Shown here: positions 2,434-41,140 of the stretch, piece by piece
Position numbering within the stretch: the first letter of the stretch is position 1
Layout: each line of letters opens with the position of its first letter
NCBI GenBank assembly: GCA_040384445.1
Contig: JAZKJG010000001.1
Coordinates: 7,650 to 71,649, forward strand
Direction of reading: 5' to 3'
Length of the DNA stretch: 64,000 nt
From: Patescibacteria group bacterium
GTDB lineage: Bacteria; Patescibacteriota; Minisyncoccia; Phycocordibacterales; CAIZLB01
The notes under the pieces: generated by a model
The model's database searches: none
What the model was told of the DNA's origin: nothing
The model's input: the letters and a program-made list of their open reading frames with translations, nothing else
Program-made: the position numbers and the translations under genes

Positions 2434-2469
2434 TCTAACTATTAATCTCTATTAACGTACAACGAATAT

Positions 2470-7077: not shown

Positions 7078-7530
7078 ATGAACGAAACATTTGAAAACAA
7101 ACCAAAAGCTAAGAAAACTTTTACAAAATTAATACTATTACTCATCTCATACGTTATCATCGGCTTCATTGTTTGGAAGCTCGCAACCAAGCAAGTTGGA
7201 GACCCAGTAAAGCTTCAGGAGCAGGCACAAAAAGAGCTCACAACAATTGTTGAAAATGTCGGAAAGATTATGATCATCCCAAGTGACGAAACTCCACAGG
7301 TAGCAATCATCCAGGACGTAGACTCACTGAAGAAAGCACAAGACTTCTTCAAAGATGCGCAGAACGGAGACAAGATTCTAGTTTACACAAAAGCACGTAA
7401 AGCAATCATTTATCGAGATACAACAAATCAAATCGTAAACGTAGCACTGAACATTGGTCCAGTGACTGACGAAACAAACTCAGCTCCAATTCAGCAACAG
7501 CCAACATCAACAACAACATCAGAAAGATAG
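7078..7530 (+). CDS. Hypothetical membrane-anchored protein (N-terminal TM helix, 150 aa)
   Basis: ORF with N-terminal hydrophobic helix LILLLISYVIIGFIVW and a Thr-rich C-terminus. Preceded by AT-rich region with tataat-like box at ~7062. Directly upstream of the giant gene. Confidence 0.5.
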   Translation: MNETFENKPKAKKTFTKLILLLISYVIIGFIVWKLATKQVGDPVKLQEQAQKELTTIVENVGKIMIIPSDETPQVAIIQDVDSLKKAQDFFKDAQNGDKILVYTKARKAIIYRDTTNQIVNVALNIGPVTDETNSAPIQQQPTSTTTSER

Positions 7531-19500: not shown

Positions 19501-21308
19501 TTATTGGGCAAGATGCTGGTTATAACGATACTGTAGATAACTCTTCGAACTATAAATCTTCGATCTTGATTGGAGATTATACATCAACTGGAGGTTTCTC
19601 AAACTCAATTGCTATTGGTCAAGGTACAAAAAACAGTGCGACTGAACAATTAAACTTAGGAGGATTGATTTATGGTTTGGGAATACGGGCAACAACAACA
19701 CCAACAGCGACACCTGTAGTTGGTGGTAAAGTTGGAATTGGAACTTCAACCCCGTCAACAACACTGGATGTATGGGGTAACTTCCAAGTTGGAACTTCTT
19801 CAACACCACTTATATTCGCAAACACTGCAACCGGACGACTTGGAGTTGGAACAAGTGCTCCAGGAGCGTTGCTTGATGTTGGAGGCATAGGAGCATCACC
19901 AACAGGATTCCCTGATATGGTTGCTGGATTTAGAGGAACTGCAAATAACTACATGACTGTTGAGATGCAGAACATAAGTGTTGGAGGAAGTGCAGCAACT
20001 GTATTGTTCCTAAGTGGAATTGGAGGAAGTAATGCAATATCTTTAGGTCAGTATGGTGCAGGAAATTCTGGCTTTACAGGAGGTATTAACAACTATGATG
20101 TATCATTCTTGACTGCTGTAGGTAGTCTTGCTCTGGGTTCAGGGGCTTCAAAAAACATACTGTTCAATATTGGAACAACAGAAGCGGCGCGATTTAACAC
20201 AAGTGGATTCTTAGGTTTAGGAACATCAACTCCATCAACAAGACTTGATGTATGGGGTAATTTCCAAGTTGGAACATCTTCAAATCCAATCATTTTCGCA
20301 AACAGTGGAACTGGACGACTTGGAGTTGGATCATCAACACCGATTGCAATGCTCGCAGTTAAAGGTACTGCAGGTGTAAACCCATTTGTTGTTGCTTCAT
20401 CAACTAACACTCAGATGTTTACGATTACACAAGCTGGAAGTGTGGGAATCGGAAGTTCAACACCAATCGCAACATTCTCACTTACAGGAGTTGGAGGAAC
20501 AAACCCAATCATGATTGCATCATCAACAAATGCCAATATGTTAAGTCTTACACAAACAGGTAGACTTGGGGTTGGTACTTCGAGTCCAGTGCAAAGTTTG
20601 GCTGTTGTAGGAACAATACATTCAACAGTCTTGAACGGAGGTGCAACAACTCTTTCAGTTGATGCAAACGGAAACATTATCAGAACTCCGTCTGATGCAA
20701 CTTTAAAAACACAAGTTGAAACATTAACAAATGCACTTGATAAAGTAAAACAACTTCGAGGTGTGAGTTACCGATGGATTGATACAGAAAGATTTGGTTC
20801 TGATCAAGATATAGGTTTGATTGCACAAGAAGTCGAAACTGTTGTTCCTGAAGTTGTAAAATCAGGAGGAGCATATAAGTCAGTTAACTATCCAAACCTT
20901 GTTGCACTATTAATAGAGGCAATGAAAGAGTTGAATACAAAAGTTGAAAAAATTGCAGCATGGTTTGGAGGAGATCGATTCGATGTACAAGGAGATATTT
21001 GTGTAGACGATGTATGTGTGACGAAAGAGCAATTCAAAGCAATGTTGATCCAAGCACAAAATGGAGGTTCAGGATCATCATACACACCACCAACTCCGGA
21101 TCCTACTCCAACACCTGATCCAACACCAGAACCTACAGATGGAGGAAGTGGTAGTGATGGAGAAGGGACTCCACCGTCTACTGAAGAAACTCCTGCACCA
21201 ACACCAACTCCGACACCTGAGTCAACTCCAGAGCCAACGCCTGAACCTGTTCCAGAACCATCACCAACACCGGCGCCTGAGCCTGCACCTACAGTGGCAG
21301 CAGAATAG
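7575..21308 (+). CDS. Giant secreted repeat protein (4577 aa). Signal peptide. Phage-tail-fibre-like modules. C-terminal intramolecular-chaperone/peptidase S74-like domain. Pro/Thr-rich tail.
   Basis: Single uninterrupted 13.7-kb ORF. N-terminal signal peptide (KLSPIAFLLIIGMFFGVYGNLFAAPA). Repeated VGIGTSTP...KL.V.G motifs. ~48-aa TASTTEW repeats. ~70 copies of a 17-aa SNF(F/I)G..AG..ATNA repeat. C-terminal SDATLKTQV...LRGVSYRW...GLIAQEVETVVPEVV...VNYPNLVALLIEAMKEL block. Confidence 0.9.
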   Translation: MKFPFLTKKLSPIAFLLIIGMFFGVYGNLFAAPATGSLGFQGQLFNNGTAVTGSVNATFTFYDAAIGGSAQGSTILKTVTVANGYFGTQFTESDTTGIDFNQELFIEVVVNGTALTPRSSVNSVPVARKAFGTFAYSSAPAVGEAGSLYFNTTSDTLLVSDGTSWVPAGTASSTTQWTTNGSDLYFTTGNVGIGTSTPADKLSVVGTVRATSFVGDGSQLTGIPVLSTSSVRSMFSSTATGLTYTAGTGVFSLAAGYVIPLTASTTEWAAAAASTTAMTPAYFRGLVSNSVAGLTYNPTTGATTLTAGYNIPLTASTTEWASAAASTSPSAIRGLFSNGATGLTYNSSTGATSLAAGYVIPLSASTTEWAAASASTTAMTPSYFRGLLSATGPISYNSSTGAFTFSTSSLGLTTTNIAEGSNQYFTDARARSALSESVTGLEYATSTGIFSLTSGYVIPTTASTSEWASAAASTTAMTPSYFRGLLSNSAAGLAYNSSTGATTLTAGYNIPLTASTTEWSQAYASTAPSVIRGLFSNSTTGLTYNSSTGATSLTAGYVISLTASTTEWATAYASTTAQTPAYFRGLLSNSVAGLTYNSSTGATTLTAGYNIPLSASSSEWALAYASTSAMTPVYTRGLFSNSTTGLTYNSGTGATSLTAGYVIPLVASTTEWAASSASTSPSAIRGLFSNGATGLTYNSSTGATSFTAGYSIPLTASSTEWSSFFNTPSTRITAGSNLSWAGNTLNAALSFSTSSINYLRNVSGGLETATSTDFLRAAYFTATGTTASTFTNASSTNLTITGSLYNSSLSNGCLEVSGGLVTSTGSNCGVGSGGITSLNGQTNSSQSFATSSTAGTFGFGFSSAGGIHTLNISLASSTNTGLLSASDWTTFNNKQGVLSFGNLTSSATGLSVTGGTGAVVGAGAAVTLAAGYSIPLSASTTEWSVAYASTTALTPAYFRALLSNSATGLTYNSGTGATSLTAGYVIPLVASTTEWAAVAASTTPSAIRGLFSNSATGLTYNSSTGATSFTAGYSIPLTASSTEWSSFFNTPSTRITAGSNLSWAGNTLNANISTSSINYLRLVSGGLEISTSTDFIRAAYFTATSTTVSTFAGAVAIGTTTSLAKFDVNAGSALHANAFNIYGVSTLGIGSVFGRISNTNTTGRTLFSLGETSGDTSTPFYIQRYGSTHATTPNLVEIGIATATGDMAFLTNSVERLRVTSSGNVGIGSSTPSATLGVAGSLNVTGAFRANGDAGTSGQIFQSTGSGASWISTSTLNILGTTTIRTLFSSTATGLTYTSGTGVFSLTAGYVIPLTASSSEWALAYASTSAMTPTYTRGLFSNSTTGLTYNSGTGATSLTAGYVIPLVASTTEWAASSASTSPSVIRSLFSNSAAGLTYSSTTGATTLTAGYSIPLTASSTEWSSFFNTPSTRITAGNNLSWTGNTLNASFSTSSVNYVRIVSGGLETATSTDFLRAAYFTATSTTGTSTFAGLVGIGTTTPSATLGVNGSINVTGAFRANGDAGTSGQIFQSTGSGASWISTSTLNILGTTTIRTLFSSTATGLTYTSGTGVFSLTAGYVIPLTASTTEWATAYASTTALTPAYFRGLLSNSATGLTYNSTTGATSFTAGYSIPLTASSTEWSSFFNTPSTRITAGSNLTWSGNTLNANISTSSINYLRLVSGGLETSTSTDFLRAAFFTATSTTATSTFAGYVGVGTSSPLAKLHVFGGTASPQVVVDSGSQNLDLYAAATTSNIDFSSILLFRSKTFANRGTNTGAVEYGRFDASGNFQVGTSTALGRVNIQGVNSSPTNAALSVYNSTGTNLLNVMNGGNVGIGSSTPSATLGVAGSLNVTGAFRANGDAGTSGQIFQSTGSGASWISTSTLNILGTTTIRTLFSSTATGLTYTSGTGVFSLTAGYVIPLVASSSEWSLAYASTSAMTPTYTRGLFSNSTTGLTYNSGTGATSLTAGYVIPLIASTTQWATAYASTTALTPAYFRGLLSNSATGLTYNSTTGATSFTAGYSIPLTASSTEWSSFFNTPSTRITAGSNLTWSGNTLNANISTSSINYLRLVSGGLETATSTNFLRAAYFTATSTTGTSTFAGAVAIGTTTSPYKLAVIGDSYFSGNINAFSYGADAYHILGSNQHNTVTIKKGTGYGSGIHFEDGSSNLWDISTDSSNNFSIFNYSPSATAFAINKSNNYVGIGTSTPIFALDVVGAAGTVIRANSSGSTYIDANTGSASSNGGFSFSALGSNKWLLYRDGDDDSVNFFSNTLAQSVLTMNAAGNVGIGTTTPTEKLSIAGALNLTGAFKSNGNAGTLGQVLQTTGTGVQWVATSSLGISGGSLSGGTDGYLARWTSASTLSSGLFLDNGTVAGINATSSSYTFNVKGNSGVNPFNVASSTGTSMFAIANNGRVTVYGDIETDDDISNTFLGVGAGKGSVLDGGSNTAVGSDALYTNTGSFGGYGYDNTALGAYSLYSLNAVSGGSGYANVAVGVKALWLNVLGSENVALGTKALEDMTDGYGNIAIGNNAGNNQTLGSYNIVIGNVVSLASTTGSNQLNIGNLLFGTDLGTGGGISTGNIGIGTNAPAYRLDVNGTGRFVRSSVDGALVLDNSTSDANSILFQTAASNKWSTYLSGNDLRFYDYSGNADRLTLKSGGNVGIGTTTPTERLSIAGALNLTGAFKANGDAGSVGYVMISQGTSTAPIWVATSSLGLSGGAGVGTINSGTAGQVAFYAGSGTTVSGTSTLFFSAGNIGIGTTTPGYRLTVDGDVWLGTTTLANGNLVIGKDGSVTSRGQAGSVFLGLDAGNGATSSNSSNFFGISAGQNAAYASYSNFFGEEAGYGATYATNSNFFGDSAGYDATNAESANFFGNEAGVNATNALFSNFFGAAAGYGATDAANSNFFGRQAGSYATDAYNANFFGDFAGSGATYATNSNFFGDSAGYDATYAYNSNFFGEQAGYDAENAYDSNFLGSSAGAYADNASSSNFIGNDAGAYSINAAFSNFLGQSAGYDADNAFNSNFIGRVTGYQATNARDSNFMGYGAGQSSTNAAFSNFFGNNAGGNAPNASYSNFLGVSAGGNATNAANSNFIGYSAGASATNAPFSNFIGYNAGNSATNASTSNFIGYNAGNAATNAAFSNFIGNNAGYGATNANFSNMQGYNAGYAATGAVASNFFGLSAGSYATGAHNANFIGNSAGGSATYAAYGNFIGANAGVNATNGEFSTFIGYNAGNAATNASSSVFIGYAAGQSATNARQSNFIGNGSGYLATNATLSNFFGINAGNSATNASSSNFIGYGTGASATNAAFSNFSGQDAGASATNASYSNFFGSQAGQLATNAVNANFFGRQTGFLATDAYDSNFIGYGAGYLATYASSSNFLGRSAGSGATNAAFSNFIGNSAGNSATDAIYSNFFGVNAGIFATGASNSNFMGYSAGHTATNAYLSNFLGRAAGSGATYAAYSNFLGYNAGLNATNAEYSNFIGNSAGETATNASTSNFIGNNAGKQATNALLSNFIGNSAGYLATNAALSNFIGNGAGNSAPNAAISNFIGYNAGNDADNASSSNFIGFQAGMQATNASSSNIIGTYAGYQSTNAAYSNFIGYGAGQYATNARNSNFIGLGAGGGGVGSYDSNFFGVNAGSNTNSYRSNFIGYNAGTDSLNATSSNFFGEYAGYDSDNAAKSNFIGHFAGYNATNATRSNFIGELAGFQATNAIDSSFIGRQAGEYATNASSSVFIGRTAGASAVNAAFSTFIGNAAGDSATGADNAIFIGNAPGYAATNTSDVIFLGRATGQYAYNASNSFFAGYAAGYGATNASMMNVIGWNAGNGATDATFSNFMGYSAGYGATNVSFSNFFGATAGYGATYASQSNFFGQYAGQNAVNAGASNFFGGGAGDGATDAASSNFFGFNAGALATDASFSNFLGQYAGKDATYASLSNFIGFSAGEDATNATQSIFIGSNAGKNAAFANSSIFIGQDAGYNDTVDNSSNYKSSILIGDYTSTGGFSNSIAIGQGTKNSATEQLNLGGLIYGLGIRATTTPTATPVVGGKVGIGTSTPSTTLDVWGNFQVGTSSTPLIFANTATGRLGVGTSAPGALLDVGGIGASPTGFPDMVAGFRGTANNYMTVEMQNISVGGSAATVLFLSGIGGSNAISLGQYGAGNSGFTGGINNYDVSFLTAVGSLALGSGASKNILFNIGTTEAARFNTSGFLGLGTSTPSTRLDVWGNFQVGTSSNPIIFANSGTGRLGVGSSTPIAMLAVKGTAGVNPFVVASSTNTQMFTITQAGSVGIGSSTPIATFSLTGVGGTNPIMIASSTNANMLSLTQTGRLGVGTSSPVQSLAVVGTIHSTVLNGGATTLSVDANGNIIRTPSDATLKTQVETLTNALDKVKQLRGVSYRWIDTERFGSDQDIGLIAQEVETVVPEVVKSGGAYKSVNYPNLVALLIEAMKELNTKVEKIAAWFGGDRFDVQGDICVDDVCVTKEQFKAMLIQAQNGGSGSSYTPPTPDPTPTPDPTPEPTDGGSGSDGEGTPPSTEETPAPTPTPTPESTPEPTPEPVPEPSPTPAPEPAPTVAAE
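8340..9760 (+). repeat. Intragenic tandem ~48-aa (~144-bp) repeats: IPLTASTTEW.A.AST......RGL.SN...GLTYNS.TGAT.LTAGY
   Basis: Direct reading of translation. Approximately 10 consecutive units. Additional dispersed copies at ~10380-10720, 11500-11860, 12300-12500, 13320-13700. Confidence 0.85.
11237..11700 (+). repeat. Long near-identical intragenic direct repeat, copy A (>95% nt identity to 13070-13510; partial copy at 12107-12310)
   Basis: By eye, the stretch ggaaatgttggaattggttcttcaactccatcagc...ggatatgt and the following ~200 nt recur almost base-for-base. Confidence 0.8.
13070..13510 (+). repeat. Long near-identical intragenic direct repeat, copy B
   Basis: See copy A. Only a handful of substitutions over >400 nt. 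Confidence 0.8.
16030..19520 (+). repeat. Array of ~70 degenerate 17-aa (51-bp) repeats SNF(F/I)G..AG..ATNA.. (coding, inside the giant gene)
   Basis: Strict 17-residue periodicity in translation with invariant N-F-x-G ... A-G ... A-T/x-N/x-A positions. Spurious ORFs in all other frames show the same periodicity. Confidence 0.9.
20688..20965 (+). other. Intramolecular chaperone / peptidase S74-like autoprocessing domain (protein domain inside giant gene 1)
   Basis: The motifs TPSDATLKTQVE, LRGVSYRWID, IGLIAQEVETVVPEVV and VNYPNLVALLIEAMKEL match hallmark blocks of the C-terminal chaperone domain of phage endosialidase/tail-spike proteins (SD.RLK.N cleavage motif; here SDATLK). Confidence 0.7.
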
Positions 21309-21378: not shown

Positions 21379-22029
21379 ATGACACCCTTACTTAAAAAAA
21401 GCATTACTTCATTTGTTTCAATTACACTATGTACTTTGAGTATATTTATAATCGCAGAACCTGCGATTATAAGTGCGGTTACAGATGATGTAGTTGTCAA
21501 CTTGACTGTTGATTCTGGGATCGCGATTACATCTCCTACCGATGTAACACTTGGATCATCTAACATGGGTGTGTCAGTAAACAGTGCTATTGGAACAGCT
21601 GTGTGGAACGTTAAAACAAACGATCCGGATGGATATTTGTTAACTATTAAAAATGCCTCAACTTCTCCAGCACTAAAGGGAGCTGGTGGAATTGGAAATT
21701 TTGCTGATTACACAGAAGCAGTTGCGAACACTCCTGAACTCTGGGCAGTGGATGCATCAACATATCAGTTTGGTTACTCAGTGAGGGGAACAGATGTGAA
21801 CACTGGTACATATGGATCAGGTGCAGATTGCGGAACAGGTAACACACCAAGTGGAACACTTAAGTATCGACATGCTTCAACAACTGCCATCACAGCAGCT
21901 ACGCGCTCGTCTACAACCACTACGGCTGGAATTGATACAACTGCTTGTTTCGCCGCAGGGCAGAACGGTGTGTATGCAGCCGCAGGTTCATATAGTGCTA
22001 CAATTACAGCAACAGCTACAACACTCTAG
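21379..22029 (+). CDS. Secreted WxL-domain-like surface protein (216 aa)
   Basis: Signal peptide. N-terminal NLTVDSG...VTLG segment (like the LSLDSVP..FDFG block of WxL proteins). WNVKTNDPDGYLLTIK (like V.DNRG..GW.L.V). C-terminal GSYSATITATATTL (like the ..Y.G.ITW.L.. tail). Paralogue of 23075-23824. Confidence 0.6.
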   Translation: MTPLLKKSITSFVSITLCTLSIFIIAEPAIISAVTDDVVVNLTVDSGIAITSPTDVTLGSSNMGVSVNSAIGTAVWNVKTNDPDGYLLTIKNASTSPALKGAGGIGNFADYTEAVANTPELWAVDASTYQFGYSVRGTDVNTGTYGSGADCGTGNTPSGTLKYRHASTTAITAATRSSTTTTAGIDTTACFAAGQNGVYAAAGSYSATITATATTL

Positions 22030-22077
22030 GAAGTGTGCAAGTAAACTGTATATTTCTAAATTTAATCCCAAGATAAT

Positions 22078-23046
22078 ATGAGTCACGTAACGCACATGCT
22101 AAAAAAAAATATTATCAGAGGATTGCTCCTGTGTATAATCATTTTCTCGTCCCAGGCACATGCTGAGGTTGTGAGAACACAACTCAATGTAGATGATACA
22201 AATGACTTTGTTGTTGAACCTGGAAAAACTGAAATATACTTAAATCCTGGGGAATCAATTAAGAAAAGTGTTTCAATAACAAATAGACAAAATAAAAAAG
22301 TTTCGTACTCGATTAAGATCGAAGATTTTGTTGGAACAGAAGACCCAAATAATCCAATTAAACTATTAGGAGAGGAGGCTGGACCGTATTCTCTTAAAAA
22401 TCTTGTAGTTCCTGAATTGGCAGAGTTTACTTTAAATTTTGGGGAACGAATTGTTATACCAATAGAAGTAAATATACCCGTAACAGCAGAACCTCGTGGA
22501 TATTACGGGGCAATAGTTGTATCTAATCAACCAGAAATCGACGATCAAGTTTCAGGGAACTCTGGAGCAGAGGGAAAAACTAGACTCATTTCTAGAATTG
22601 GTTCGCTTTTGCTTGTGAGAGTGAATGGGTTAGGGGAGGAATCAGGAAAGCTTGAAGATTTAAAACTGTTAGGACCTTCAAAATTATTTTATGAAAAAAA
22701 ACCAGCAGGGTTTGAAATATTGTTTAGAAATGATGGAAATGTGCACCTTGTCCCAAGTGGAAAAATTTCTATCACGAATATTATAGGAAAAAAAGTTGCA
22801 GAGCTTCCTGTTGATGCATATTTTGCACTTCCGGATTCTTTGCGATACAGAGAAATCCAGTGGCAAGAAGGATTTGGATTTGGAAGATATAAAGCTAATC
22901 TTTCATTGTATAGGGGGTATGGAAATCAATTCGATGAAGATTCGGTTGTGTTCTGGGTTTTGCCTTGGAAATTATTACTTGCAATATTTGTTATAATTTG
23001 TTTTATATATTATATTTCAAGGAAATTTGAATTTAAAAGAAAGTAA
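22078..23046 (+). CDS. DUF916/DUF3324-like (CscA-like) cell-surface protein, signal peptide + C-terminal TM anchor with basic tail (322 aa)
   Basis: Signal peptide LLLCIIIFSSQAHA. Beta-rich body. C-terminal WVLPWKLLLAIFVIICFIYYISRKFEFKRK anchor. Position between two WxL-like genes matches the csc-type cluster layout. Confidence 0.5.
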   Translation: MSHVTHMLKKNIIRGLLLCIIIFSSQAHAEVVRTQLNVDDTNDFVVEPGKTEIYLNPGESIKKSVSITNRQNKKVSYSIKIEDFVGTEDPNNPIKLLGEEAGPYSLKNLVVPELAEFTLNFGERIVIPIEVNIPVTAEPRGYYGAIVVSNQPEIDDQVSGNSGAEGKTRLISRIGSLLLVRVNGLGEESGKLEDLKLLGPSKLFYEKKPAGFEILFRNDGNVHLVPSGKISITNIIGKKVAELPVDAYFALPDSLRYREIQWQEGFGFGRYKANLSLYRGYGNQFDEDSVVFWVLPWKLLLAIFVIICFIYYISRKFEFKRK

Positions 23047-23074
23047 TTTTGAATTTGTAACATATTAATAATCC

Positions 23075-23824
23075 ATGACACATCGTCATTTTCACAGTTT
23101 CATAATGATACTTCTGACTTTTGTTCCTATCTATGCAATAGGACAAGTGATGCAGAGTACTGTGTACAAGATTGAATCTGACAGTATTAATTTTGGAGGA
23201 GGAAATTCATCAAGTACAAGCTATAGTCTAGAAGATACCTTGGGTGAAATTGCTTCAGGGTATAGTTCGAGTTCTTCTTATGTGATGAATGCAGGCTATC
23301 AACACATGAATGAGTCCACATACATAACTCTAAGTGCTTTGAGCGATTTAAATCTTGGAACAATTGGAGGGTTCGTAGGAGGTGTTGCAACAGGAACTCA
23401 TTCGTGGGTGGTTACTACAAATAACCCTGAAGGATACACACTCACCGCCAAAGCATCAACAGCGCCAGCTCTCACATCTGGTGCGGCATCTTTTGGTGAC
23501 TACGTTCCCGCTGGACCTGACCCTGATCTAAACTTTACAGTTTCTGCAACGAGTTCAAAGTTCGGATTTTCACCTGAAGGTGTGGATGTTGTGCAAAGAT
23601 TTAAGGATAATGGATCGTCATGTAATGCAGGAACATCAAACACAACCGATGCATGTTGGGATGGATTTTCAACTACAACAAAATCTGTATCATTAAGAAA
23701 TTCAAGTAATTTACCATCAGGTTCAACAACGACTATAAAATACCGTGCAGAAATCGGAGCCTCATATTTTCAGGATGCAGGTGATTATTCTGCAATTATA
23801 ACAATTACCGCGCTTGCACTATAA
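23075..23824 (+). CDS. Secreted WxL-domain-like surface protein, second paralogue (249 aa)
   Basis: Signal peptide. ITLSALSDLNLGTIGG. WVVTTNNPEGYTLTAK. C-terminal GDYSAIITITALAL. Alignable with 21379-22029 over the full length. Confidence 0.6.
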   Translation: MTHRHFHSFIMILLTFVPIYAIGQVMQSTVYKIESDSINFGGGNSSSTSYSLEDTLGEIASGYSSSSSYVMNAGYQHMNESTYITLSALSDLNLGTIGGFVGGVATGTHSWVVTTNNPEGYTLTAKASTAPALTSGAASFGDYVPAGPDPDLNFTVSATSSKFGFSPEGVDVVQRFKDNGSSCNAGTSNTTDACWDGFSTTTKSVSLRNSSNLPSGSTTTIKYRAEIGASYFQDAGDYSAIITITALAL

Positions 23825-25182
23825 TGAAAAAAAATGTATTCACGCATGTAAAAATCTTAACTTTAACTAGTATGTGTGTTATGGGTTTAGGTTTGCATGC
23901 GGATATAGATGTTAATTTAATGGTCGAAGGTTGCAATAATGATACTGTGTGTGAAATTCAGTACGGTGAAAGTTTTAATTCATGTCCAAACGATTGTGCC
24001 TATGTTGCGCCAACATCAACTCCTCCAACGCCAGTCACTCCACTGCCATCTGCTGATTCTTCTGGAATACTATTTGGAACTAAGGGTGACACAACATTGC
24101 GATTTGAAAATGTTCATATTACGCACGGACTTGATTCTGCTGTTTTAACATGGAATACGACACGTCCCACTAAGTCATCAATCAGTTGGGGACTGACAGA
24201 TGATTACGCTGAAGGTGTGCTGTCGGAAATTGAATTCATCAAAACACATTCATCAAAAATTAATAATATTATTCCAGGAAAAATATATGTATTTAAAATT
24301 ACGGCAGTAGATGCAGACGGAGTTTATGTAACATATTCTGGAAACTTTTTACTTAAAAAAGAAACCCCTGTACTCTTGCCACTAAACGTTGCTGATTTTA
24401 GAATTTTTACTGCTCCAACAGGAATTGGACTCAGGTGGAATAATGTAAGTGATTTAGAATATGAATATGTACGAATTATTAGGTCCACAACAGGATATCC
24501 TCATAATCCATCAGATGGAAAAGTTGTATATGAGGGTAAGGGACAAAGCTTTGTAGATATAAATGTGCTTGAGGGGGTAAGATATTATTATGCTGCGTTT
24601 GTTCGAAATCAATCCTCACAATATTCTTCAGGAGTTTTAAGGACAGTAATAAAATATAAAAACGGAATCACTCCACTTGATTCTGATGTTGGTTTTCCAT
24701 TTGAAAATGATAATCAGATAGATACTGCAATTCCGTCAAATGTATTCCAACTCACACATCAAGATATAGATTTTATTCAAAATAATACAAAGATCTCTTT
24801 CATATCTTCAGTCGTCCCTGTAAATTCAAGTATTCCGCTAATTGTAAGTGTTCCTAAATTTAATAATTCAGTAGTGTTTTTGACAATGACCTCAAGTGAT
24901 CAGACATATTTATTTGCATACAATGTTAGCGATGATAGATTAGAGGTGCAAATTCCATCCTTGCACACAGATAATTCTATTGAATATTTTCTGTATATAT
25001 TAAATGATGGTACTTTCTATAAGCTTAATCAAGGAACATTCGACCTGTCTCCATCTGTCGATTATACCGACACGAGAAATGGCAAAAAAAGAGCTCAAAA
25101 CCTTAAAGATTTTCTTATAATTATACCTATTGCTGTTTTTTTGATTGCGATTAAATTGATTTATAGAATTTTTAAAAAATAA
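23824..25182 (+). CDS. Surface protein with Cys-rich N-terminal module, Pro/Thr linker, two FN3-like domains and C-terminal TM anchor (452 aa)
   Basis: Signal peptide. CNNDTVCEIQYGESFNSCPNDC. PTSTPPTPVTPLP linker. Two ~90-aa segments with FN3-like W..T and Y.Y.A patterns. Terminal FLIIIPIAVFLIAIKLIYRIFKK. Confidence 0.6.
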   Translation: MKKNVFTHVKILTLTSMCVMGLGLHADIDVNLMVEGCNNDTVCEIQYGESFNSCPNDCAYVAPTSTPPTPVTPLPSADSSGILFGTKGDTTLRFENVHITHGLDSAVLTWNTTRPTKSSISWGLTDDYAEGVLSEIEFIKTHSSKINNIIPGKIYVFKITAVDADGVYVTYSGNFLLKKETPVLLPLNVADFRIFTAPTGIGLRWNNVSDLEYEYVRIIRSTTGYPHNPSDGKVVYEGKGQSFVDINVLEGVRYYYAAFVRNQSSQYSSGVLRTVIKYKNGITPLDSDVGFPFENDNQIDTAIPSNVFQLTHQDIDFIQNNTKISFISSVVPVNSSIPLIVSVPKFNNSVVFLTMTSSDQTYLFAYNVSDDRLEVQIPSLHTDNSIEYFLYILNDGTFYKLNQGTFDLSPSVDYTDTRNGKKRAQNLKDFLIIIPIAVFLIAIKLIYRIFKK

Positions 25183-25270: not shown

Positions 25271-28200
25271 ATGGGTACATTTATCATAAAGCACGTTCAG
25301 AAAAACTGTAAAAAGTTTTTAAAAACTTTCCTTATCTTAGGATTGTTTTTAATGTGTTTTACTGCATATAGTGTGGTATATGCTGCGTTTAATCCTCAGA
25401 TAAATTACCAGGGAAAACTTACAGATGCTTCAGGTAACCCTGTTGCAAATGGAACATACAATATTGAATTTAAATTGTATACAGTTTCAAGTGGTGGAAG
25501 TCCTATTTGGACAGAAACAAGAACTGGAGGAGATAAGGTTACAATTACAAATGGACTGTTCAGTGTGATGCTTGGAAGTGTAAATTCAATTTCAGGAATT
25601 GATTTTAATCAACCATTATATCTAGGGGTAAATATTGGAGGAACAGGTTCACCATCTTATGACGGTGAAATGACTCCTCGAAAAACTTTCGGTACTGTAC
25701 CTGCATCATTTGTTGCACAGACACTTGAAGGATATCGAGCGATTCAATTTTTGCGAAGTGATGTTATAAATTCAACAAGTACAGGAGCTACGTTTTTAAA
25801 ACTTGAGCAAGCTGGAGCTGGAGCGATTGCAGAATTTATTGGAAATACTTCATCAACAATTCTTGGAATATATTCTGCAGGAGGTGGAGCTGTTGGAATT
25901 GGAACAACAACTCCAACAGAGAAGCTTACTATTGCAAATGGAAATTTGTTACTACAAGGAGAATACGGTGTGAAATGGACAGGAGGTTCTCAACTGTACG
26001 AACAAACTGTTGCAGGGGCTGGAGTTGATAGAATGATTTATCGACCTAATGGAGATCGATTTGATGTTATCGATGAAGCCGGTTCAACGTTCATGGCATC
26101 ATTCAATGTAAGTAATATACAGTTGTTTACTGCAGGTGTTTCAAGATTGTTTATTGATTCTTCAGGAAACCTTGGTATTGGAACTACGACCCAAACAGAA
26201 AAACTCACAATCGCAGGAAACATCAACCTCACCGGTGCATTCAAATCAAACGGAAACGCCGGAACACTGGGACAAGTATTACAAACAACAGGAACTGGGG
26301 TGCAATGGGTTGCAACATCAACTCTTGGAATATCAGGCGGATCACTCTCAGGTGGAACTAATGGGTATCTATCACGATGGACAAGTTCCTCAACTTTGAG
26401 TACGGGATTATTTCTAGACAATGGAACTGTAGCGGGAATTAACGCAACATCTTCATCATACACATTTAATGTAAAAGGATCAGGAGCGCTCGGTGCCTTC
26501 AATGTTGCGTCGTCGACTGGTACTTCGCTCCTCAACGTGAGGGCGAATGGGTATGTAGGAATCGGAACAAACGCTGCTGCATATCAGCTGGATGTAAAAG
26601 CTGATACTTCTGGCATTACTAACGTACTGAACCTAAGTAGTTCTATGACAGGGGCTGGAGATGGTACAGGAATTCTATTCTCTAGTTCTGAGGGAAGTCT
26701 ACATGCGCGTATACGAACCAGTGCCTATACAGGTACAACAGCAGGTTTAATATTCGAAGTAACCCCTTCAACTGATACCTTAACTGAAGCACTGCGTATC
26801 ACAGATACTGGAAATGTAGGAATCGGAACAACAACTCCATCTGCAAAACTAGATGTATGGGGAAATTTGAAAGTAGGAACATCATCAACACCAATTTTGT
26901 TTGCAAACACAGCAACAGGAAAAGTTGGTATTGGAACAGTATCGCCAGCGCATACATTAGATTTGGGAGGAGTAAGTCCGACTTTAAATGTTGGGTTATA
27001 CGGAGGGGGAGGTGCTGCAACTATTCGTATGTTGGGGGAAGCATTGTTTAGTTTCTCTGGTGGAACAGTCGGATCAACTATTGCAATAGGCTCTGCTGAT
27101 ACTTCTGTTGATTTTGACCTTGCGTTCCATGCAGGAGGATCGAACAGAATGTATATAGATGGGGCGACTGGTAATGTTGGAATCGGAACAACAACATCAG
27201 TAGAACTTCTCACAATTGCAGGAAATCTCAACCTCACAGGTGCACTCAAATCAAACGGAAATGCAGGAACTCTCGGACAAATATTACAAACAACAGGAAC
27301 CGGAGTACAATGGGTTGCTACATCATCATTAGGTATTTCAGGTGGAGGAGGATCGGGAACTGTAAACTCTGGACTTCTTGGTCAAGTTGCTTTTTATAGT
27401 GCAAATGGAACAGCGGTTTCAGGAACTTCAACATTGTTTATCACTGGTGAAAAGATTGGAGTTGGAACAACGACTGTAACAGAAAAATTAGTAGTCGATG
27501 GAAATGCTCTTATTACAGGATTACTAAAAGGTGGTACTTCTGCAAATATTAATTTAAATGGACTGTCTAATAACGGTGTAGATTTTAACTATTTAAATGG
27601 AGGTATATTTCGTACTGCAGAAACAAGTATTGCAGGAACAAATGATATATTCTTCCAAGGAGTTCCTGCTACTACTGCTGGATATACCTATCTTGAAGCA
27701 TGGCAATCTGCTGGTTTGATTTTAGGAACGGGAAATTCAACTGCAATTATTTTCAAACCAAACAGAACTGAATACATGCGACTTACTGGAACTGGTGATT
27801 TGGGAATTGGGACATCTACTCCAATTGCAAAACTTGCAGTTACAGGAACAGGAACAACAACAGGTAAAGCTTTCGTTGTTGCAAACTCAAACAATACTCC
27901 GATATTCACAATGCTTGATAATGGAAATATTGGAAATGGTGTAGGCGCTGACCCTGTATCATGGGATTTCCATATACAAAGAACTGGAAATTTGTACGCA
28001 ACCCTACAAAGTTCAACAGGACATTCTACCCTTCGTCTTGTGAGTGCCACAGGGTTGAGCCCCACTCTTCATTTTGGTGACGGGTCAAGTAATCGATGGG
28101 ACGTTGTTTCAAATGGTTCAAACTCAGGAAACCTTGAGTTTAATTCATATTCTGTAGGAAATGTAATGAGTCTAGGTTTGACAACTGGACTTGTAGGAAT

Positions 28201-31200
28201 CGGAACATCTACTCCATCCGCAAAACTGGATGTATGGGGAAATTTGAAGGTAGGTACATCATCAACTCCAACATTGTTTGTAAACACTGCAACAGGAAAA
28301 GTTGGTATTGGATCTTCAACTCCGGTAAGTAAACTTTCTGTTGTGGCATCATCAGGGGTAGCTGTGACATTTGAAAATACAGCAACATGGTCAGGTTCAG
28401 AGTTTGCACTTGATGTAAAAGGTTACTCAAACTTAAGTGGACTCAGGATTAATGCAGCTGACGGAATTAATGCACTCTACAACGGGGCAAATACAACTCT
28501 GGGATTTACAAATAATCAAGGGTATCCAATTACGTTTTCATCATGGAATGGCACAGTAACTGAATTGATGAGAATTGATACAACAAGTGGGAAGATTGGA
28601 ATTGGAACTTCAACAGCAACGGAAATTCTTTCTGTCGCAGGAAATATCAACCTCACCGGTTCATTCAAATCTAACGGAAACGCAGGAACTCTTGGACAAG
28701 TGTTACAAACAACTGGAACAGGAGTACAGTGGGTTGCAACATCATCACTTGGAATAACGGGTGGAGGTATATCAGGAACTGTAAACTCAGGGCTGCTCGG
28801 TCAAGTTGCTTTTTATGATGCCAACGGAACAGTGGTTTCAGGAACTTCAACATTATTTATTACTGGAGAAAAACTTGGTATAGGAACTACAACTCCTGGA
28901 TACAAACTGACTGTTGACGGAGATGTGTGGCTTGGAACTACGACTCTTGCAAATGGTAATCTTGTTATTGGTAAGGATGGCTCTGTTGCATCACGAGGCA
29001 TGCTCCACTCTATTTTCCTTGGGAAAGATTCTGGAACATCTACAGCTGCTACTGGTAATTCAAACTTCTTCGGAAATGGTGCAGGACAATATGCAACAAA
29101 CGCAGATAACTCAAACTTCTTTGGATCTGGAGCAGGAGAATCTGCTACTGAAGCAGCAGGATCAAACTTCTTTGGGGCAGTGGCAGGAAGTGGAGCAACA
29201 TATGCAGCAGGATCAAACTTCTTCGGAGCTGGAGCTGGATTCTCTGCAACAGAAGCTGCATACTCAAACTTCTTCGGAGAAAATACAGGAAGTTTTGCGA
29301 CATATGCTGACAACTCAAACTTCTTTGGTGCCGCTGCAGGAAACAATGCAACAAATGCATCATCATCAAACTTCTTTGGTGCTGCCGCTGGAGACAGTGC
29401 TACAAATGCTTTCAATTCAAACTTCTTTGGAAGATTAGCTGGAGCCGGCGCAGCTAATGCAGCAAACTCAAACTTTGTGGGTTATAACGCTGGAAATAAT
29501 TCAACCAACGCTGCACTCTCAAACTTCATTGGATACAATGCTGGTAACGATGCAACAAACGCATCGTCATCAAACTTCATCGGATTCCTTGCTGGAATGC
29601 AGGCGACAAATGCATCATCATCAAACATTTTTGGATCATATGCAGGTTACCAATCAACGAATGCTGCCTACTCAAACTTCATCGGATATGGTGCAGGACA
29701 GTACGCAACAAATGCACGTAACTCTAACTTCCTAGGACTAGGAGCTGGAGGAGGAGCTGCAGGTGCATATGATTCAAACTTCTTTGGTGTGAACGCAGGA
29801 TCAAATACAAATGCATTTAGATCAAACTTTATGGGATATGAAGCAGGAAGTACTGCAACAAACGCAACCTACTCAAACTTCACTGGATATTATGCTGGAT
29901 ATGGTGCAACCAATGCAAATGACTCTAACTTTATCGGTAGAAATGCGGGATACAATGCAACAAACGCATCAACAACTAACTTCATAGGATATAATGCAGG
30001 ACAAAACGCAACGAATGCAAACTTATCAAACTATATTGGGTACTATGCAGGAAATGGAGCAACAAACGCTTCAAACGTGAATGCACTTGGTGCATATGCA
30101 GGTCAAAATGCAACGAATGCCTCAAACTCATTCTTCGTAGGATATCAAGCAGGAAATAATGCAACAAATGCAAACATGGTAACTGCTATTGGATATCTTG
30201 CAGGATCTGGTGCATCTGATGCCATATTCTCAAACTTCTTTGGATATGGAGCCGGACAAAACGCAACAAACACATCAAACTCAAACTTCTTTGGAGCTAG
30301 TGCAGGGTCAGGAGCTTCACAAGTTTCAAACTCAAACTTCTTTGGGGTAAGTGCAGGTAGTGCTGCAGTAGGTGCAAGTGCATCAAACTTCTTTGGATCT
30401 GGAGCAGGACAAAACGCAACTAACGCAGTATCTTCTAACTTCTTTGGATTTTCAACAGGATCTGGTGCAACCAATGCAATATTCTCTAACTTCTTCGGAC
30501 AATATGCAGGTCAAAATGCAACGAATGCTTCGTACTCAAATTTCTTCGGATTCAATTCGGGATATGGAGCAACTACTGCCCAGAACTCAACATTTATGGG
30601 TCCACAAGCGGGATATCAGGCTGCTAATGCTAATAATGCAATATTCCTAGGGCAAAACTCAGGATACAATGATACGGTAAATAACTCAACCAACTGGAAG
30701 TCTTCAATCCTTATTGGAGATTACACATCAACTGGAGGTTTCTCAAACTCAATCGCTATCGGTCAAGGTACAAAAAACAGTGCAACAGAGCAATTAAACT
30801 TAGGGGGCTTGATTTATGGACTGGGAATACGAGCAACAACAACACCAACTGCCACTCCTGTTTCTGGAGGTCTTGTAGGTATTGGAACTTCAACTCCAGG
30901 AACTATACTTACAATTGTTGCAGATGCTTCTGTTGATAGTGGTTTGTCGGTTATCGGTAACAATAATGGTTTCTTCGAAGGTAATATTCAAAACTTAAGT
31001 TCAGGAGTAAATGCCTCATCTGATTGGGTGGCAACAGCAAATAACGGAGATGATACCATTCATTACATTGATATGGGAATCAACGGTAGTGGAGGAGGAG
31101 CTGCACCATTTACAGGTGCTAACCAGGCGTACCTGTATTCTGTAAGTGATACACTCAACATTGGAGCATTAGGAACCGGAAATACTGTTAACTTCTATAC

Positions 31201-32719
31201 AACTGGTGGAACTTCTCCAGTAGAGAGAATGCGGATTGATAGTTTTGGAAATATTGGAATTGGAACCACAACTGTTCCTGCTTCACTATCATTGGCGAGC
31301 GCAACAACAACTGGTGATGCAATCTCAGTTCATGGACCATTAGGAACGAAACTTTTCAGTGTAAAACTTATTGCTCAAAACTTCGGAGGGCTTGTTGAAT
31401 CAGGAGCATTTATGGGTAACAACTCATTTTTTGCAGAAGAGTTTAACGTAGATACTGCGCTTATCAGTGCTGACAGTGCAGCGATTGGAGATAACGGAGG
31501 TATGTATTTTGATACAACATCTGTTACGTCAACATATTCAGCTACAGACTTCATTGGTGGATACGGAAGACTTGTGGCAAGTACCACAACGGGTGTTGGT
31601 GGATTGATTGGTTTTGGAAATGCTCAGAACAACCTTAGTTTAATGTTCTCTAAAGCAAACTTACCTGTTGTACAGATGAAAGTGAGAACAAATATTAACA
31701 ACACAACAAACGATACTTTTTGGGGGCTTATGGACCAGGCTACTGCTCCAACTGCGAACGACACGGCTCCAGCAAACGGTATATATTTCTGGAATAACAA
31801 CGCAGCAGGAGGATGGCAAGGGGTTGTGCGAAGTGGAGGTGCAAACGTAGGTACAGTAACTTGTCCAGGTGCTATCAGTACTACACAGTTTGCAATAGGA
31901 AGAATTCAGGTAGAAAGTACTTCAACCGTACGATTTTTGATTGATAACGATATTACAACTGACGGAGTTAATATGGTGGATTGTGGAACTGTGACAGGGG
32001 CAAACCCTTCTGCAGCTCTTGGAATCGCACTGTATAATATTCATACAGAAAACACTGCGACAGCAAGAAATATTGATATTGATTATATGCGAGTGTGGCA
32101 AGATGATGCGTCAACATCCTCAGATGAATCACTTGCAGGAGATGTTTCTTCAACTCCAGAAAAACTTACACAGTTCCTAGATAATGGATATCTTGTAGAC
32201 GGACTTGAATTAATGGGCAGAATTCAATCTGAAGATCAAAAAAATGTACTGGAAATTATTACGGATAAGGTGAAGAAAAATATGGAAATAGTTTCGGAAT
32301 TTGTGGCGCTTCGAGTTGTGGCAATGCGAGGATATTTTGAGGAGGTATTTACAAAGAAAATCCACACTGAAAAAATGTGTCTGAAGAAATCAGATGGTTC
32401 TGAGTATTGTGTAAATGGAGATGAGTTGCAATCAATCATGGAAGGAAAGGGTGTGGTGGTATCACCAACAACGAACCAGCCTGAAAATGTAGCCCCTACC
32501 TCTACGTCAACTTCAGATTCAGTGAGTGGTGGGGCAGCAACAAATACTGCTAACGAAGATCCTGATAGTTCCTCACCAACGGTGCAAGAGACTGAACAGC
32601 TCCCTCCTCCATCTGAAACTGTTCAGGAGCCTGCGTTTGAGCCCGAACCAGCACCAGCATCAACACCTGAACCTACTCCAACTTCGACACCAGAAGCTGC
32701 CCCTGCTCCAACAGAGTAG
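25271..32719 (+). CDS. Giant secreted repeat protein 2 (2482 aa), paralogous modules to giant gene 1, distinct C-terminal domain, Pro/Thr/Glu-rich tail
   Basis: Uninterrupted 7.4-kb ORF. Signal peptide/TM. The N-terminal domain is alignable with gene 1 (IDFNQ.L...V..G......PR..FGT). Segments 26190-26510 and 30700-30880 are ~90% identical at nt level to 14440-14790 and 19560-19740. ~32 copies of the 17-aa repeat. No SD.RLK-type chaperone block. Confidence 0.9.
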   Translation: MGTFIIKHVQKNCKKFLKTFLILGLFLMCFTAYSVVYAAFNPQINYQGKLTDASGNPVANGTYNIEFKLYTVSSGGSPIWTETRTGGDKVTITNGLFSVMLGSVNSISGIDFNQPLYLGVNIGGTGSPSYDGEMTPRKTFGTVPASFVAQTLEGYRAIQFLRSDVINSTSTGATFLKLEQAGAGAIAEFIGNTSSTILGIYSAGGGAVGIGTTTPTEKLTIANGNLLLQGEYGVKWTGGSQLYEQTVAGAGVDRMIYRPNGDRFDVIDEAGSTFMASFNVSNIQLFTAGVSRLFIDSSGNLGIGTTTQTEKLTIAGNINLTGAFKSNGNAGTLGQVLQTTGTGVQWVATSTLGISGGSLSGGTNGYLSRWTSSSTLSTGLFLDNGTVAGINATSSSYTFNVKGSGALGAFNVASSTGTSLLNVRANGYVGIGTNAAAYQLDVKADTSGITNVLNLSSSMTGAGDGTGILFSSSEGSLHARIRTSAYTGTTAGLIFEVTPSTDTLTEALRITDTGNVGIGTTTPSAKLDVWGNLKVGTSSTPILFANTATGKVGIGTVSPAHTLDLGGVSPTLNVGLYGGGGAATIRMLGEALFSFSGGTVGSTIAIGSADTSVDFDLAFHAGGSNRMYIDGATGNVGIGTTTSVELLTIAGNLNLTGALKSNGNAGTLGQILQTTGTGVQWVATSSLGISGGGGSGTVNSGLLGQVAFYSANGTAVSGTSTLFITGEKIGVGTTTVTEKLVVDGNALITGLLKGGTSANINLNGLSNNGVDFNYLNGGIFRTAETSIAGTNDIFFQGVPATTAGYTYLEAWQSAGLILGTGNSTAIIFKPNRTEYMRLTGTGDLGIGTSTPIAKLAVTGTGTTTGKAFVVANSNNTPIFTMLDNGNIGNGVGADPVSWDFHIQRTGNLYATLQSSTGHSTLRLVSATGLSPTLHFGDGSSNRWDVVSNGSNSGNLEFNSYSVGNVMSLGLTTGLVGIGTSTPSAKLDVWGNLKVGTSSTPTLFVNTATGKVGIGSSTPVSKLSVVASSGVAVTFENTATWSGSEFALDVKGYSNLSGLRINAADGINALYNGANTTLGFTNNQGYPITFSSWNGTVTELMRIDTTSGKIGIGTSTATEILSVAGNINLTGSFKSNGNAGTLGQVLQTTGTGVQWVATSSLGITGGGISGTVNSGLLGQVAFYDANGTVVSGTSTLFITGEKLGIGTTTPGYKLTVDGDVWLGTTTLANGNLVIGKDGSVASRGMLHSIFLGKDSGTSTAATGNSNFFGNGAGQYATNADNSNFFGSGAGESATEAAGSNFFGAVAGSGATYAAGSNFFGAGAGFSATEAAYSNFFGENTGSFATYADNSNFFGAAAGNNATNASSSNFFGAAAGDSATNAFNSNFFGRLAGAGAANAANSNFVGYNAGNNSTNAALSNFIGYNAGNDATNASSSNFIGFLAGMQATNASSSNIFGSYAGYQSTNAAYSNFIGYGAGQYATNARNSNFLGLGAGGGAAGAYDSNFFGVNAGSNTNAFRSNFMGYEAGSTATNATYSNFTGYYAGYGATNANDSNFIGRNAGYNATNASTTNFIGYNAGQNATNANLSNYIGYYAGNGATNASNVNALGAYAGQNATNASNSFFVGYQAGNNATNANMVTAIGYLAGSGASDAIFSNFFGYGAGQNATNTSNSNFFGASAGSGASQVSNSNFFGVSAGSAAVGASASNFFGSGAGQNATNAVSSNFFGFSTGSGATNAIFSNFFGQYAGQNATNASYSNFFGFNSGYGATTAQNSTFMGPQAGYQAANANNAIFLGQNSGYNDTVNNSTNWKSSILIGDYTSTGGFSNSIAIGQGTKNSATEQLNLGGLIYGLGIRATTTPTATPVSGGLVGIGTSTPGTILTIVADASVDSGLSVIGNNNGFFEGNIQNLSSGVNASSDWVATANNGDDTIHYIDMGINGSGGGAAPFTGANQAYLYSVSDTLNIGALGTGNTVNFYTTGGTSPVERMRIDSFGNIGIGTTTVPASLSLASATTTGDAISVHGPLGTKLFSVKLIAQNFGGLVESGAFMGNNSFFAEEFNVDTALISADSAAIGDNGGMYFDTTSVTSTYSATDFIGGYGRLVASTTTGVGGLIGFGNAQNNLSLMFSKANLPVVQMKVRTNINNTTNDTFWGLMDQATAPTANDTAPANGIYFWNNNAAGGWQGVVRSGGANVGTVTCPGAISTTQFAIGRIQVESTSTVRFLIDNDITTDGVNMVDCGTVTGANPSAALGIALYNIHTENTATARNIDIDYMRVWQDDASTSSDESLAGDVSSTPEKLTQFLDNGYLVDGLELMGRIQSEDQKNVLEIITDKVKKNMEIVSEFVALRVVAMRGYFEEVFTKKIHTEKMCLKKSDGSEYCVNGDELQSIMEGKGVVVSPTTNQPENVAPTSTSTSDSVSGGAATNTANEDPDSSSPTVQETEQLPPPSETVQEPAFEPEPAPASTPEPTPTSTPEAAPAPTE
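29060..30670 (+). repeat. Array of ~32 17-aa (51-bp) SNFFG..AG..ATNA repeats inside giant gene 2
   Basis: Same periodic motif as 16030-19520. Confidence 0.9.
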
Positions 32720-32920: not shown

Positions 32921-33331
32921 ATGACACCAGAGATATATTCATGGAAAAAACCATTTTTTAGCGCAGCAGCATGTTTATTTGTGCTATTGATATTGAACGA
33001 TGTTGCAGTTCAACTTGCTTTATATTGGGGATACAAATGGCTTGATATACCATTTCATTTCATTGGAGGATTTGGAGTAGGTTTGGCAAGTATTGGACTA
33101 CTACGGATCGCATTTCCAGGTGAAAAATATATAAATAGTCCTCAGCTTTTATATACTGTACTTCTTACATTGTTTGTTGGTGCTTCATGGGAAGCAGTAG
33201 AAACGTATTATGACGTGTCTGTTCTCTTTGGTGGAAATTTCTGGTTTGATACATATAAAGATTTGCTTATGGATACACTTGGTGGGATACTTAGCTACAT
33301 ATGTTTCCATCCGCGCAAAAAAAATCTGTAA
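32921..33331 (+). CDS. VanZ-like family small membrane protein (136 aa)
   Basis: Four predicted TM helices. C-terminal WEAVE...DTYKDLLMDTLGGILSY matches the VanZ E..Q...R...D.LaNtlGa.lG motif pattern. Confidence 0.5.
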   Translation: MTPEIYSWKKPFFSAAACLFVLLILNDVAVQLALYWGYKWLDIPFHFIGGFGVGLASIGLLRIAFPGEKYINSPQLLYTVLLTLFVGASWEAVETYYDVSVLFGGNFWFDTYKDLLMDTLGGILSYICFHPRKKNL

Positions 33332-41010: not shown

Positions 41011-41140
41011 ATGTTTATTTTATGTAGGTATTTAGTTGATAAATAATTGCACATATCTTTGCCCTACATAGGTTATGACGGGTGGGGGTGACAACTCTTA
41101 CATGCTATGTAAGAATGAGCATATTGACACGTCTCTATAT

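Follow-up and report, generated by a model that had tools for sequence, protein, structure and literature searches.

A giant tail-fibre-like protein with a predicted lectin-like domain near its distal end, encoded beside a Pam/WxL-like gene cluster in a Patescibacteria chromosome

Known fibre, lectin and pilus systems and the P2 locus

Phage tail fibres and tailspikes bearing a Peptidase_S74 (S74) domain, such as those of the endosialidase/K1F type and of the T5 L-shaped fibre type, combine a conserved N-terminus with a β-rich shaft, long and repetitive, and with distal modules that can be exchanged. The same logic is found in a giant protein, hereafter P2, encoded on the forward strand at positions 25271..32719 of a stretch of 64,000 nucleotides (the window; contig JAZKJG010000001.1 of assembly GCA_040384445.1). 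The source organism, represented by a Patescibacteria metagenome-assembled genome (MAG), is a bacterium of the candidate phyla radiation (CPR). Unlike the S74 fibres of phages, P2 (2482 amino acids, aa) has no S74 core, starts with a signal peptide, is encoded on a chromosome and is far longer than most phage fibres. A paralogue, P1 (7575..21308, forward strand; open reading frame (ORF) of 4577 aa), served for comparison. A tail-fibre logic in a secreted cellular protein is indicated by the conserved N-terminus, the variable distal cassettes, a shaft homologous to PHROG families and the S74 domain of the paralogue. As a whole, P2 is best explained, with moderate confidence, as a Sec-exported fibrous surface adhesin of a CPR bacterium that resembles phage tail fibres and holds a lectin-like domain near its distal end.

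The predicted fold of this domain (module B, aa 2026-2285) resembles, in the model alone, the L-type lectins ERGIC-53/LMAN1, VIP36 and Emp46/47 and the SO2946-like sandwich. Unlike these lectins, with which it shares only 10-17% identity, module B has a Cys pair and a DxDYxRVWQDD end that are specific to its own family. Trimeric autotransporter adhesins (YadA-like) are comparable in being long, repetitive and fibrous; the Gly/Ala/Asn-rich repeats recall the YadA head and some relatives of P2 carry PF05658, but no YadA anchor or outer-membrane β-barrel domain is found in P2 by Pfam. CPR bacteria are generally regarded as being without an outer membrane.

Two gene clusters are closest to the surroundings of P2. 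The Pam pilus operon of CPR bacteria encodes the membrane-anchored PapD-like chaperones PamC/D, the tip pilin PamT and the anchored protein PamR, and a protein termed "tail fibre-like" consistently co-localises with it; the fibre protein and its ends were not analysed in that study (Troman et al. 2026, bioRxiv 10.64898/2026.03.03.709456). P2 similarly lies directly downstream of four genes whose products are, in turn, PamT-like, pilin-like (a paralogue of the former), chaperone-like (membrane-anchored, with two β-sandwiches) and C-terminally anchored; this cluster is no more than a distant relative of the pam genes described there. The WxL clusters of Firmicutes encode small WxL proteins, large WxL proteins with host-binding domains and a WxLIP made of DUF916, DUF3324 and a transmembrane (TM) segment (Hassan et al. 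2023, PMC10599100). They share with the present locus an overall plan in which a large protein for host binding is encoded together with small β-proteins and an Ig-like chaperone or holder anchored in the membrane, but neither P2 nor P1 showed any WxL domain or motif, and Pfam gave no match to DUF916 or DUF3324.

Architecture of P2 and fold of its distal end

From its N-terminus onwards, P2 reads as a signal peptide, an N-terminal domain, a β-rich stalk, a 33-unit repeat array with a conserved cap and a variable distal end. The latter comprises one stalk module (module A), a predicted lectin-like sandwich with a putative disulfide (module B), a helical neck with a Cys hairpin (module C) and a presumably disordered Pro/Thr-rich tail. 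The whole protein has no Pfam match at all (E<=0.1), and for modules B and C only the comparison of folds was informative.

Module B (31346..32125, forward strand; ~260 aa, ending in DIDYMRVWQDD) was modelled by AlphaFold2 from a 19-sequence alignment as an all-β domain, with predicted local distance difference test (pLDDT) values of 74-94 over aa ~2054-2280. The model has the two-sheet jelly-roll fold of the concanavalin A (ConA)-like class. Foldseek searches against the PDB returned ERGIC-53, VIP36, Emp46/47, legume lectins and SO2946 (E 1e-8 to 1e-6), the L-type lectins being matched with a probability of 1.00 and a target-normalised template modelling score of 0.5-0.63. In BFVD, a set of viral models, module B matched phage proteins (E 7e-12 to 1e-9) annotated as ConA-like, "SO2946-like C-terminal domain", "phage tail repeat like" or "Major tropism determinant N-terminal domain-containing". 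The two cysteines C2198 and C2238 are conserved across the module-B family and form a putative disulfide; outside the signal peptide, all six Cys of P2 form close pairs. A preliminary description of this locus proposed that the end of P2 may be a receptor-binding tip, unless it turned out to be disordered or a degenerate repeat. Structure prediction reveals a folded, lectin-like domain, and disorder or degeneracy fits the last 88 aa only; the "tip" fared less well, as module B is subterminal, is followed by an H-lectin-like domain in about three quarters of its relatives and is a putative binding domain. What it would most likely recognise is a glycan or some different surface ligand, presented by a host cell or a substrate, and on the strength of the model P2 is probably a modular host- or sugar-binding adhesin.

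The fold would also suit an enzyme. Module B could be a ConA-like "glucanase", e.g., a depolymerase of the GH16 type that degrades host surface polysaccharide in the manner of a phage tailspike, given that the ConA-like lectin/glucanase superfamily contains glycoside hydrolases and that some GH43 accessory domains appear among the fold matches. S74-bearing phage proteins, moreover, are often depolymerases. However, the module-B alignment contains no invariant Glu among its 61 invariant columns and the module-B sequence lacks an ExDxxE-type motif of the GH16 kind. In addition, the top fold matches are lectins and carbohydrate-recognition domains rather than GH16 or GH7 enzymes, while the GH43 matches concern a non-catalytic β-sandwich. 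We therefore regard an enzymatic module B as quite improbable.

The modules on either side of module B are of a different kind. Module A (30908..31306, forward strand; aa 1880-2012, ~130 aa) has more than 100 matches in "tail fiber domain-containing" proteins of CPR bacteria and Bacteroidota, often with two to three copies per protein. A weak match to its profile, over the full length, lies at P1 aa 4114-4226, and its C-terminal motif, "...RIDxxGNVGIGTTTP", recurs throughout both giants according to a module hidden Markov model (HMM). Module A is shaft and not a new domain. Module C (aa 2286-2394) has no match in Pfam, NCBIfam, PHROG or PDB sequence searches and consists of two parts. C1 (32126..32290, forward strand; aa 2286-2340) is an extension of module B (LTQFLDNGYLVDGLEL) with the start of the helical neck and also follows module B in P0001, P0002/L003 and L001. 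C2 (32291..32452, forward strand; aa 2341-2394) comprises a helix, the Cys hairpin (C2370, C2380) and a short helix. These last ~55 aa of module C are 52% identical to the stretch behind the S74 domain of P0124, and their hC..D..C[VI]xxxxL motif is common to the post-S74 part of P1, P0001, P0004, L001 and P0030.

Behind C2, P2 ends in a low-complexity tail of 88 aa (32453..32716, forward strand; aa 2395-2482) that is presumably disordered and whose composition (P 20%, T 17%, S 14%, E 12%) bears out the Pro/Thr/Glu tail of the preliminary description. An end made of a Cys hairpin, a helix and a Pro/Thr-rich tail is seen in many CPR fibre proteins, whatever precedes it (P2 aa 2370-2380, P1 aa 4476-4481, L017 13654-16647, P0030, P0004 and P0124). 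This tail module might act as an anchor, in oligomerisation or as an export signal.

The N-terminal side of P2 would suit an exported fibre. Residues 1-38 (25271..25384, forward strand), read from the sequence as a signal peptide or signal anchor, comprise a basic n-region, a 20-aa hydrophobic core and VYA|AF, with a counterpart in P1 and in the orthologues. P2 would be exported via Sec by this signal-peptide-like N-terminus, cleavage being putative, and its surface location is likewise a prediction from sequence. The domain that follows (INYQGKL...WTETR...NGLFSV; 25385..25750, forward strand; aa ~39-160) is the best-conserved part among the fibre genes, with 33-44% identity between P2 and those of L002, L010 and L011, and is likely the cell-proximal, partner-binding attachment end.

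The stalk (25751..28996, forward strand; aa ~161-1242) consists of "GIGT"-bounded modules recognised by PHROG matches and the module HMM, and contains three copies of a KSNGNAGTLGQ(V/I)LQTTGTGVQWVATS block, two exact and one variant. Its homology to phage tail fibres is found at aa 241-1240, which match PHROG tail fiber families 18345 (E 4.7e-34) and 9942 (E 7.9e-34). The stalk leads into an array of ~33 repeats of 17 aa (SNFFGxxAGxxATNAxx; 28997..30697, forward strand; aa 1243-1809).

Module shuffling in the P2 family and between the two giants

A full HMMER scan, run over 1.84 billion cluster representatives, recovered only 163 relatives of module B, almost all of them within proteins 500-3500 aa long; 137 reached E<=1e-10. 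The family is rare, novel in sequence and found here only in CPR genomes. A locus search in GTDB with an alignment of eight closer sequences yielded 13 module-B loci, all in CPR MAGs (Moraniibacteriota, Saccharimonadales-type), including a few evidently mislabelled bins. L004, L008 and L009 come from MAGs labelled Bdellovibrionales or Gammaproteobacteria, with module-B fibre genes 57-62% identical to the query; they are probably mis-binned or mislabelled CPR contigs, because the other ten of the 13 loci are labelled CPR or are unclassified ("bacterium").

Module B always lies near the C-terminus (median distance, 265 aa), and the sequence that follows it varies. An H-lectin-like β domain comes next in 92 of 124 proteins (~74%), with Pfam support (H_lectin) for P0005 and P0011; a helix/Cys-hairpin tail as in P2 is found in six, a coiled coil with a small β domain in four, stalk followed by S74 in two, and other or unclassified tails in 22. 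At least five alternative end cassettes can thus follow module B among its relatives, some of which also carry CBM_4_9 domains or Kelch propellers in the shaft, as well as H_lectin. P2 itself has no H_lectin (PF09458) domain, neither by Pfam nor by tblastn of four H-lectin-like tails against the window. Its own arrangement (module B, C1 and Cys hairpin) is kept in L001, P0001 and P0004 at 48-71% identity. The modular design of the P2 family is supported by these variants, in which module B is a shuffled subterminal module of fibres rich in carbohydrate-binding domains, and not necessarily their very tip.

Such a position invites another explanation, namely that module B is a structural or oligomerisation knob, a "collar" of the fibre without a role in ligand binding, specificity residing in the H-lectin-like domain of the relatives or in other stalk modules of P2. 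The H-lectin-like domain lies distal to module B in ~74% of the family, and in P0030 it is further stalk that does so; the tip is thus not the normal place of module B, whose ConA-like fold is a generic scaffold. Yet no other globular domain is found distal to module B in P2, L001, P0001 or P0004, and the best fold matches of module B are carbohydrate-recognition domains and the ends of phage fibres. We consider a mere collar unlikely and favour the lectin-like, ligand-binding module.

The two giants of the window provide a second view of this shuffling. The preliminary description had them share the N-terminal domain, two sequence blocks and the 17-aa array, and all of these were recovered as exact blocks, BLASTP alignments or array register. 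The KSNGNAGTLGQVLQTTGTGVQWVATS block has one exact copy in P1 (aa 2312) and two in P2 (aa 325 and 1133), and both proteins contain an exact copy of the NSIAIGQGTKNSATEQLNLGGLIYGLGI block (P1 aa 4010, P2 aa 1826). By BLASTP, the N-termini (P2 4-221, P1 5-204) are 29% identical (E 4e-8), P2 949-1798 is 50% identical to P1 2530-3388 and P2 1249-1882 is 64% identical to P1 3382-4066. The 17-aa array, with ~33 units in P2 versus ~70 in P1, has a nucleotide identity of 64-74% between them. The two giants do not represent a single shaft fitted with alternative tips: P1 has ~2,000 aa of extra repeats that are absent from P2. Long arrays of ~45-aa "TAGYxIPLTASTTEW..." repeats, which P2 lacks, occupy P1 aa ~230-2280 (window ~8250-14400). 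In this repeat region the GC skew is negative (8-14 kb), and there are several long antisense ORFs, probably artefacts of the repeats.

Homology between the giants ends at a sharp breakpoint. The junction or cap block common to both (30698..30907, forward strand; P2 aa 1810-1879) includes 50 codons (aa 1810-1859) that encode residues 100% identical in P1, as seen in a codon-by-codon comparison, and similarity drops sharply in the DNA directly after GIGTSTP (window ~30910). The P2-specific region spans aa 1880-2394, i.e., 515 aa. The distinct region of ~550 aa announced in the preliminary description is consequently real, if not uniformly distinct: module A and C2 have counterparts in P1, and only aa ~2026-2340 are without one in P1 or in the remaining window. 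The stretch that had been quoted as its limits, LAGDVSS...CVNGDELQSIMEGKG, was misplaced, as it spans only aa 2288-2394 (107 aa).

Cassettes do vary and the shaft is homologous to PHROG families, so that the comparison with the modular, specificity-swapping fibres of phages made in the preliminary description holds as far as modularity goes. It also proposed a search for other C-terminal cassettes elsewhere in the genome; within the 64-kb window, no spare or silent cassette was found by tblastn, for which modules B and C, S74 and six foreign tails served as queries. At the junction, the identical 50-codon block differs between P1 and P2 at 15 of 150 nucleotides, all synonymous. Recent gene conversion between P1 and P2 is ruled out at this site by these 15 synonymous differences in 50 identical codons. 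Synonymous-only divergence indicates old purifying selection and not a recent cassette exchange, which speaks against active swapping. Cassette "swapping" is an evolutionary pattern, with no sign of an active switching mechanism because no spare cassettes are present in the window and the junction shows this old divergence of the purifying-selection type.

The giants also differ in their chaperone, and here the preliminary description was right that P2 lacks the autochaperone of P1. Peptidase_S74 (PF13884) is found in P1 at aa 4373-4429 (20691..20861, forward strand; E 9e-17), while P2 has no match, neither as a whole protein (E<=0.1) nor in its sub-regions (E<=10). The last 250 aa of P1 (aa 4328-4577) are matched by 46 PHROG families, most of those listed being tail-fibre or baseplate families. 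The S74 domain of P1 begins with S4373-D-A-T-L-K4378, i.e., a Ser with a Lys at +5, a spacing that we take to be that of the self-cleaving endosialidase chaperone. A cryptic S74 domain in P2 is ruled out: no match was obtained at E<=10, and the "SDESLA" after module B has no Lys at +5. P1 ends in an analogous low-complexity tail of 83 aa. In P1 (20691-21056, aa 4373-4494), S74 cleavage would detach both the Cys hairpin and the Pro/Thr tail, which P2 would keep.

The end of P2 contains the post-chaperone segment of CPR S74 proteins (helix, Cys hairpin and low-complexity tail). To judge from sequence, P2 is without the chaperone core yet keeps a segment that is normally located behind S74. This resembles a deletion or replacement, and P2 might accordingly be a decaying paralogue of P1 that has lost S74 together with its folding and function. 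Decay is very improbable in our estimation, since the P2 ORF is intact over 2482 codons, the architecture is conserved elsewhere at 48-71% identity and the block shared with P1 has undergone only synonymous change. An identical protein is a cluster representative of the public library (P0245), and the C-terminal part of P2 is present on an independent Logan contig, L014. We retain P2 as a probable adhesin, whose binding specificity would differ from that of P1, the distal end of the latter being matured by a self-cleaving S74 domain.

Chromosomal setting, the Pam/WxL-like cluster and possible roles

The window is a segment of a bacterial chromosome, with rpoB and rpoC at 13-6159 and, among its other genes, those for a β-CASP RNase, a release factor, CTP synthase, gyrA and ABC transporters. 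P1 and P2 are on the same strand and separated by four ORFs without Pfam match. Given the PHROG tail-fibre matches of its stalk, its fold matches to phage proteins and relatives annotated as "tail fiber domain-containing protein", P2 might be taken for the tail-fibre gene of a phage, prophage or tailocin rather than for a cellular surface protein. Its neighbours (rpoBC, the Pam-like cluster, β-CASP RNase, release factor and CTP synthase) include no phage structural gene, and P2 starts with a signal peptide. Its chromosomal synteny with the four-gene cluster is kept in several CPR lineages, and no module-B relative was found among the viral contigs of IMG/VR with two peptide patterns. A phage origin of the gene as it stands is the least probable of the explanations weighed here, and we continue to read P2 as a cellular surface protein.

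The four genes between the giants (o216, o322, o249 and o452; 21379..25182, forward strand), directly upstream of P2, form a cluster that seems to be distantly related to the Pam pilus operon and whose close homologues are labelled Paceibacterota or Nomurabacteria. o249 matches the NCBIfam model CPR_pilus_PamT (E 1.6e-9), albeit with 37.6 bits against a cutoff of 240, and the pilin-like o216 is its paralogue (36% identity). o216, o322 and o452 have no match to any NCBIfam model and none of the four has a Pfam match. o322 is 100% identical to the NCBI protein V4686_00085 of a Patescibacteria group bacterium, in keeping with the CPR assignment. The AlphaFold2 model of o322 (pLDDT 83) consists of two β-sandwiches and a C-terminal TM helix (aa 297-321). 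Its best fold match is WxLIP of E. faecium (9i1y/9i25; E 2e-12), followed by chaperones of chaperone-usher systems (CsuC, CfaA and Caf1M) and by RbmA. o452 carries a signal peptide and a C-terminal TM helix. The cluster matches the architecture described for a Pam locus: a PapD-like two-domain chaperone with a C-terminal TM helix, pilin-like genes and an adjoining tail-fibre-like gene. We also considered whether the giants' N-terminal domain might be akin to o216/o249, as a pilin or as a donor-strand acceptor; hhalign gave no support (probability 1.6%, from a shallow multiple sequence alignment).

Other CPR contigs (L017-L021) have the four genes in this very order, at 27-59% identity, and in three of four distinct contexts the four genes are followed by an ORF of ~120 aa and a large fibre gene. 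The fibre genes behind the cluster in L017, L019 and L020 encode an N-terminal domain 48-65% identical to that of P2, and different ends: S74 with a Cys hairpin in L017, S74 with an Ig-like domain in L019 (4749 aa) and an H-lectin-like domain in L020. Going by gene order, P2 is the positional equivalent of these fibre genes, its own end being different again. In L002 and L011, more distant homologues of o322 are located just upstream of the module-B fibres.

A further candidate partner is o150 (7078..7530, forward strand), a small membrane-anchored protein of 150 aa with an N-terminal TM helix, a small domain and no family match. Its tblastn homologues are found directly downstream of the module-B fibre genes in seven of the 13 loci (L002, L006, L007, L008, L011, L012 and L013), and it may be a dedicated accessory factor. 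In the window, o150 lies just upstream of P1.

Other features of the surroundings can be summarised as follows. A scan for promoters and terminators over 20.9-33.4 kb found sites no commoner than in shuffled sequences and says nothing on operon structure. Behind P2, a 136-aa membrane protein (32921-33331) overlaps the start of the β-CASP RNase gene by ~30 nucleotides; the precomputed annotation of the identical Logan contig L014 assigns it to DUF2238. Farther on (41075-42332), the gene for an extracytoplasmic function (ECF) sigma factor is followed by that for a DUF5667 protein, probably its anti-sigma-like partner.

Several observations weigh against P2 as a lectin-bearing surface adhesin. 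The sequence searches with module B in Pfam, NCBIfam, PHROG and PDB matched no characterised lectin, and the ConA-like sandwich is a very common scaffold that has purely structural roles too. The model of module C, helical with a β-hairpin holding C2370 and C2380, is of low confidence. No LPXTG, WxL, S-layer-homology or membrane-anchor domain was found in P2. Finally, the apparent link of P2 to the Pam-like cluster is one of synteny only. Nonetheless, both giants flank this cluster and would probably work with it, and ligand recognition by P2 would plausibly serve host attachment, on which CPR episymbionts depend.

More tentatively, and with considerable doubt, we suggest that CPR bacteria may use giant fibres derived from phage tail fibres as the host-recognition arm of a Pam/WxL-like system. 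The N-terminal domain would dock to the machinery or envelope, while the distal cassette would be exchangeable (ConA-like lectin, H-type lectin, S74-matured tip or Ig-like). Two fibres with different tips in one genome, as here, would then mean two host or ligand specificities, and module B would be a new, so far CPR-only lectin family that sets the host range of the episymbiont.

By what means CPR bacteria, ultra-small and dependent on hosts, locate these and stay attached to them is an open question, for which this locus offers a concrete and testable candidate. It encodes two giant tail-fibre-like proteins, alike at their base and different at their ends, one of which contains a previously unrecognised family with a lectin fold; between them lies a chaperone–pilin cluster whose type was recently shown to assemble CPR pili. 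Should module B not be ligand-specific, its description would still be a useful annotation of a 260-aa family without an existing Pfam model. If the lectin-like domain sets specificity, one might interpret the catalogue of alternative end cassettes as the host-range code of uncultured CPR lineages.

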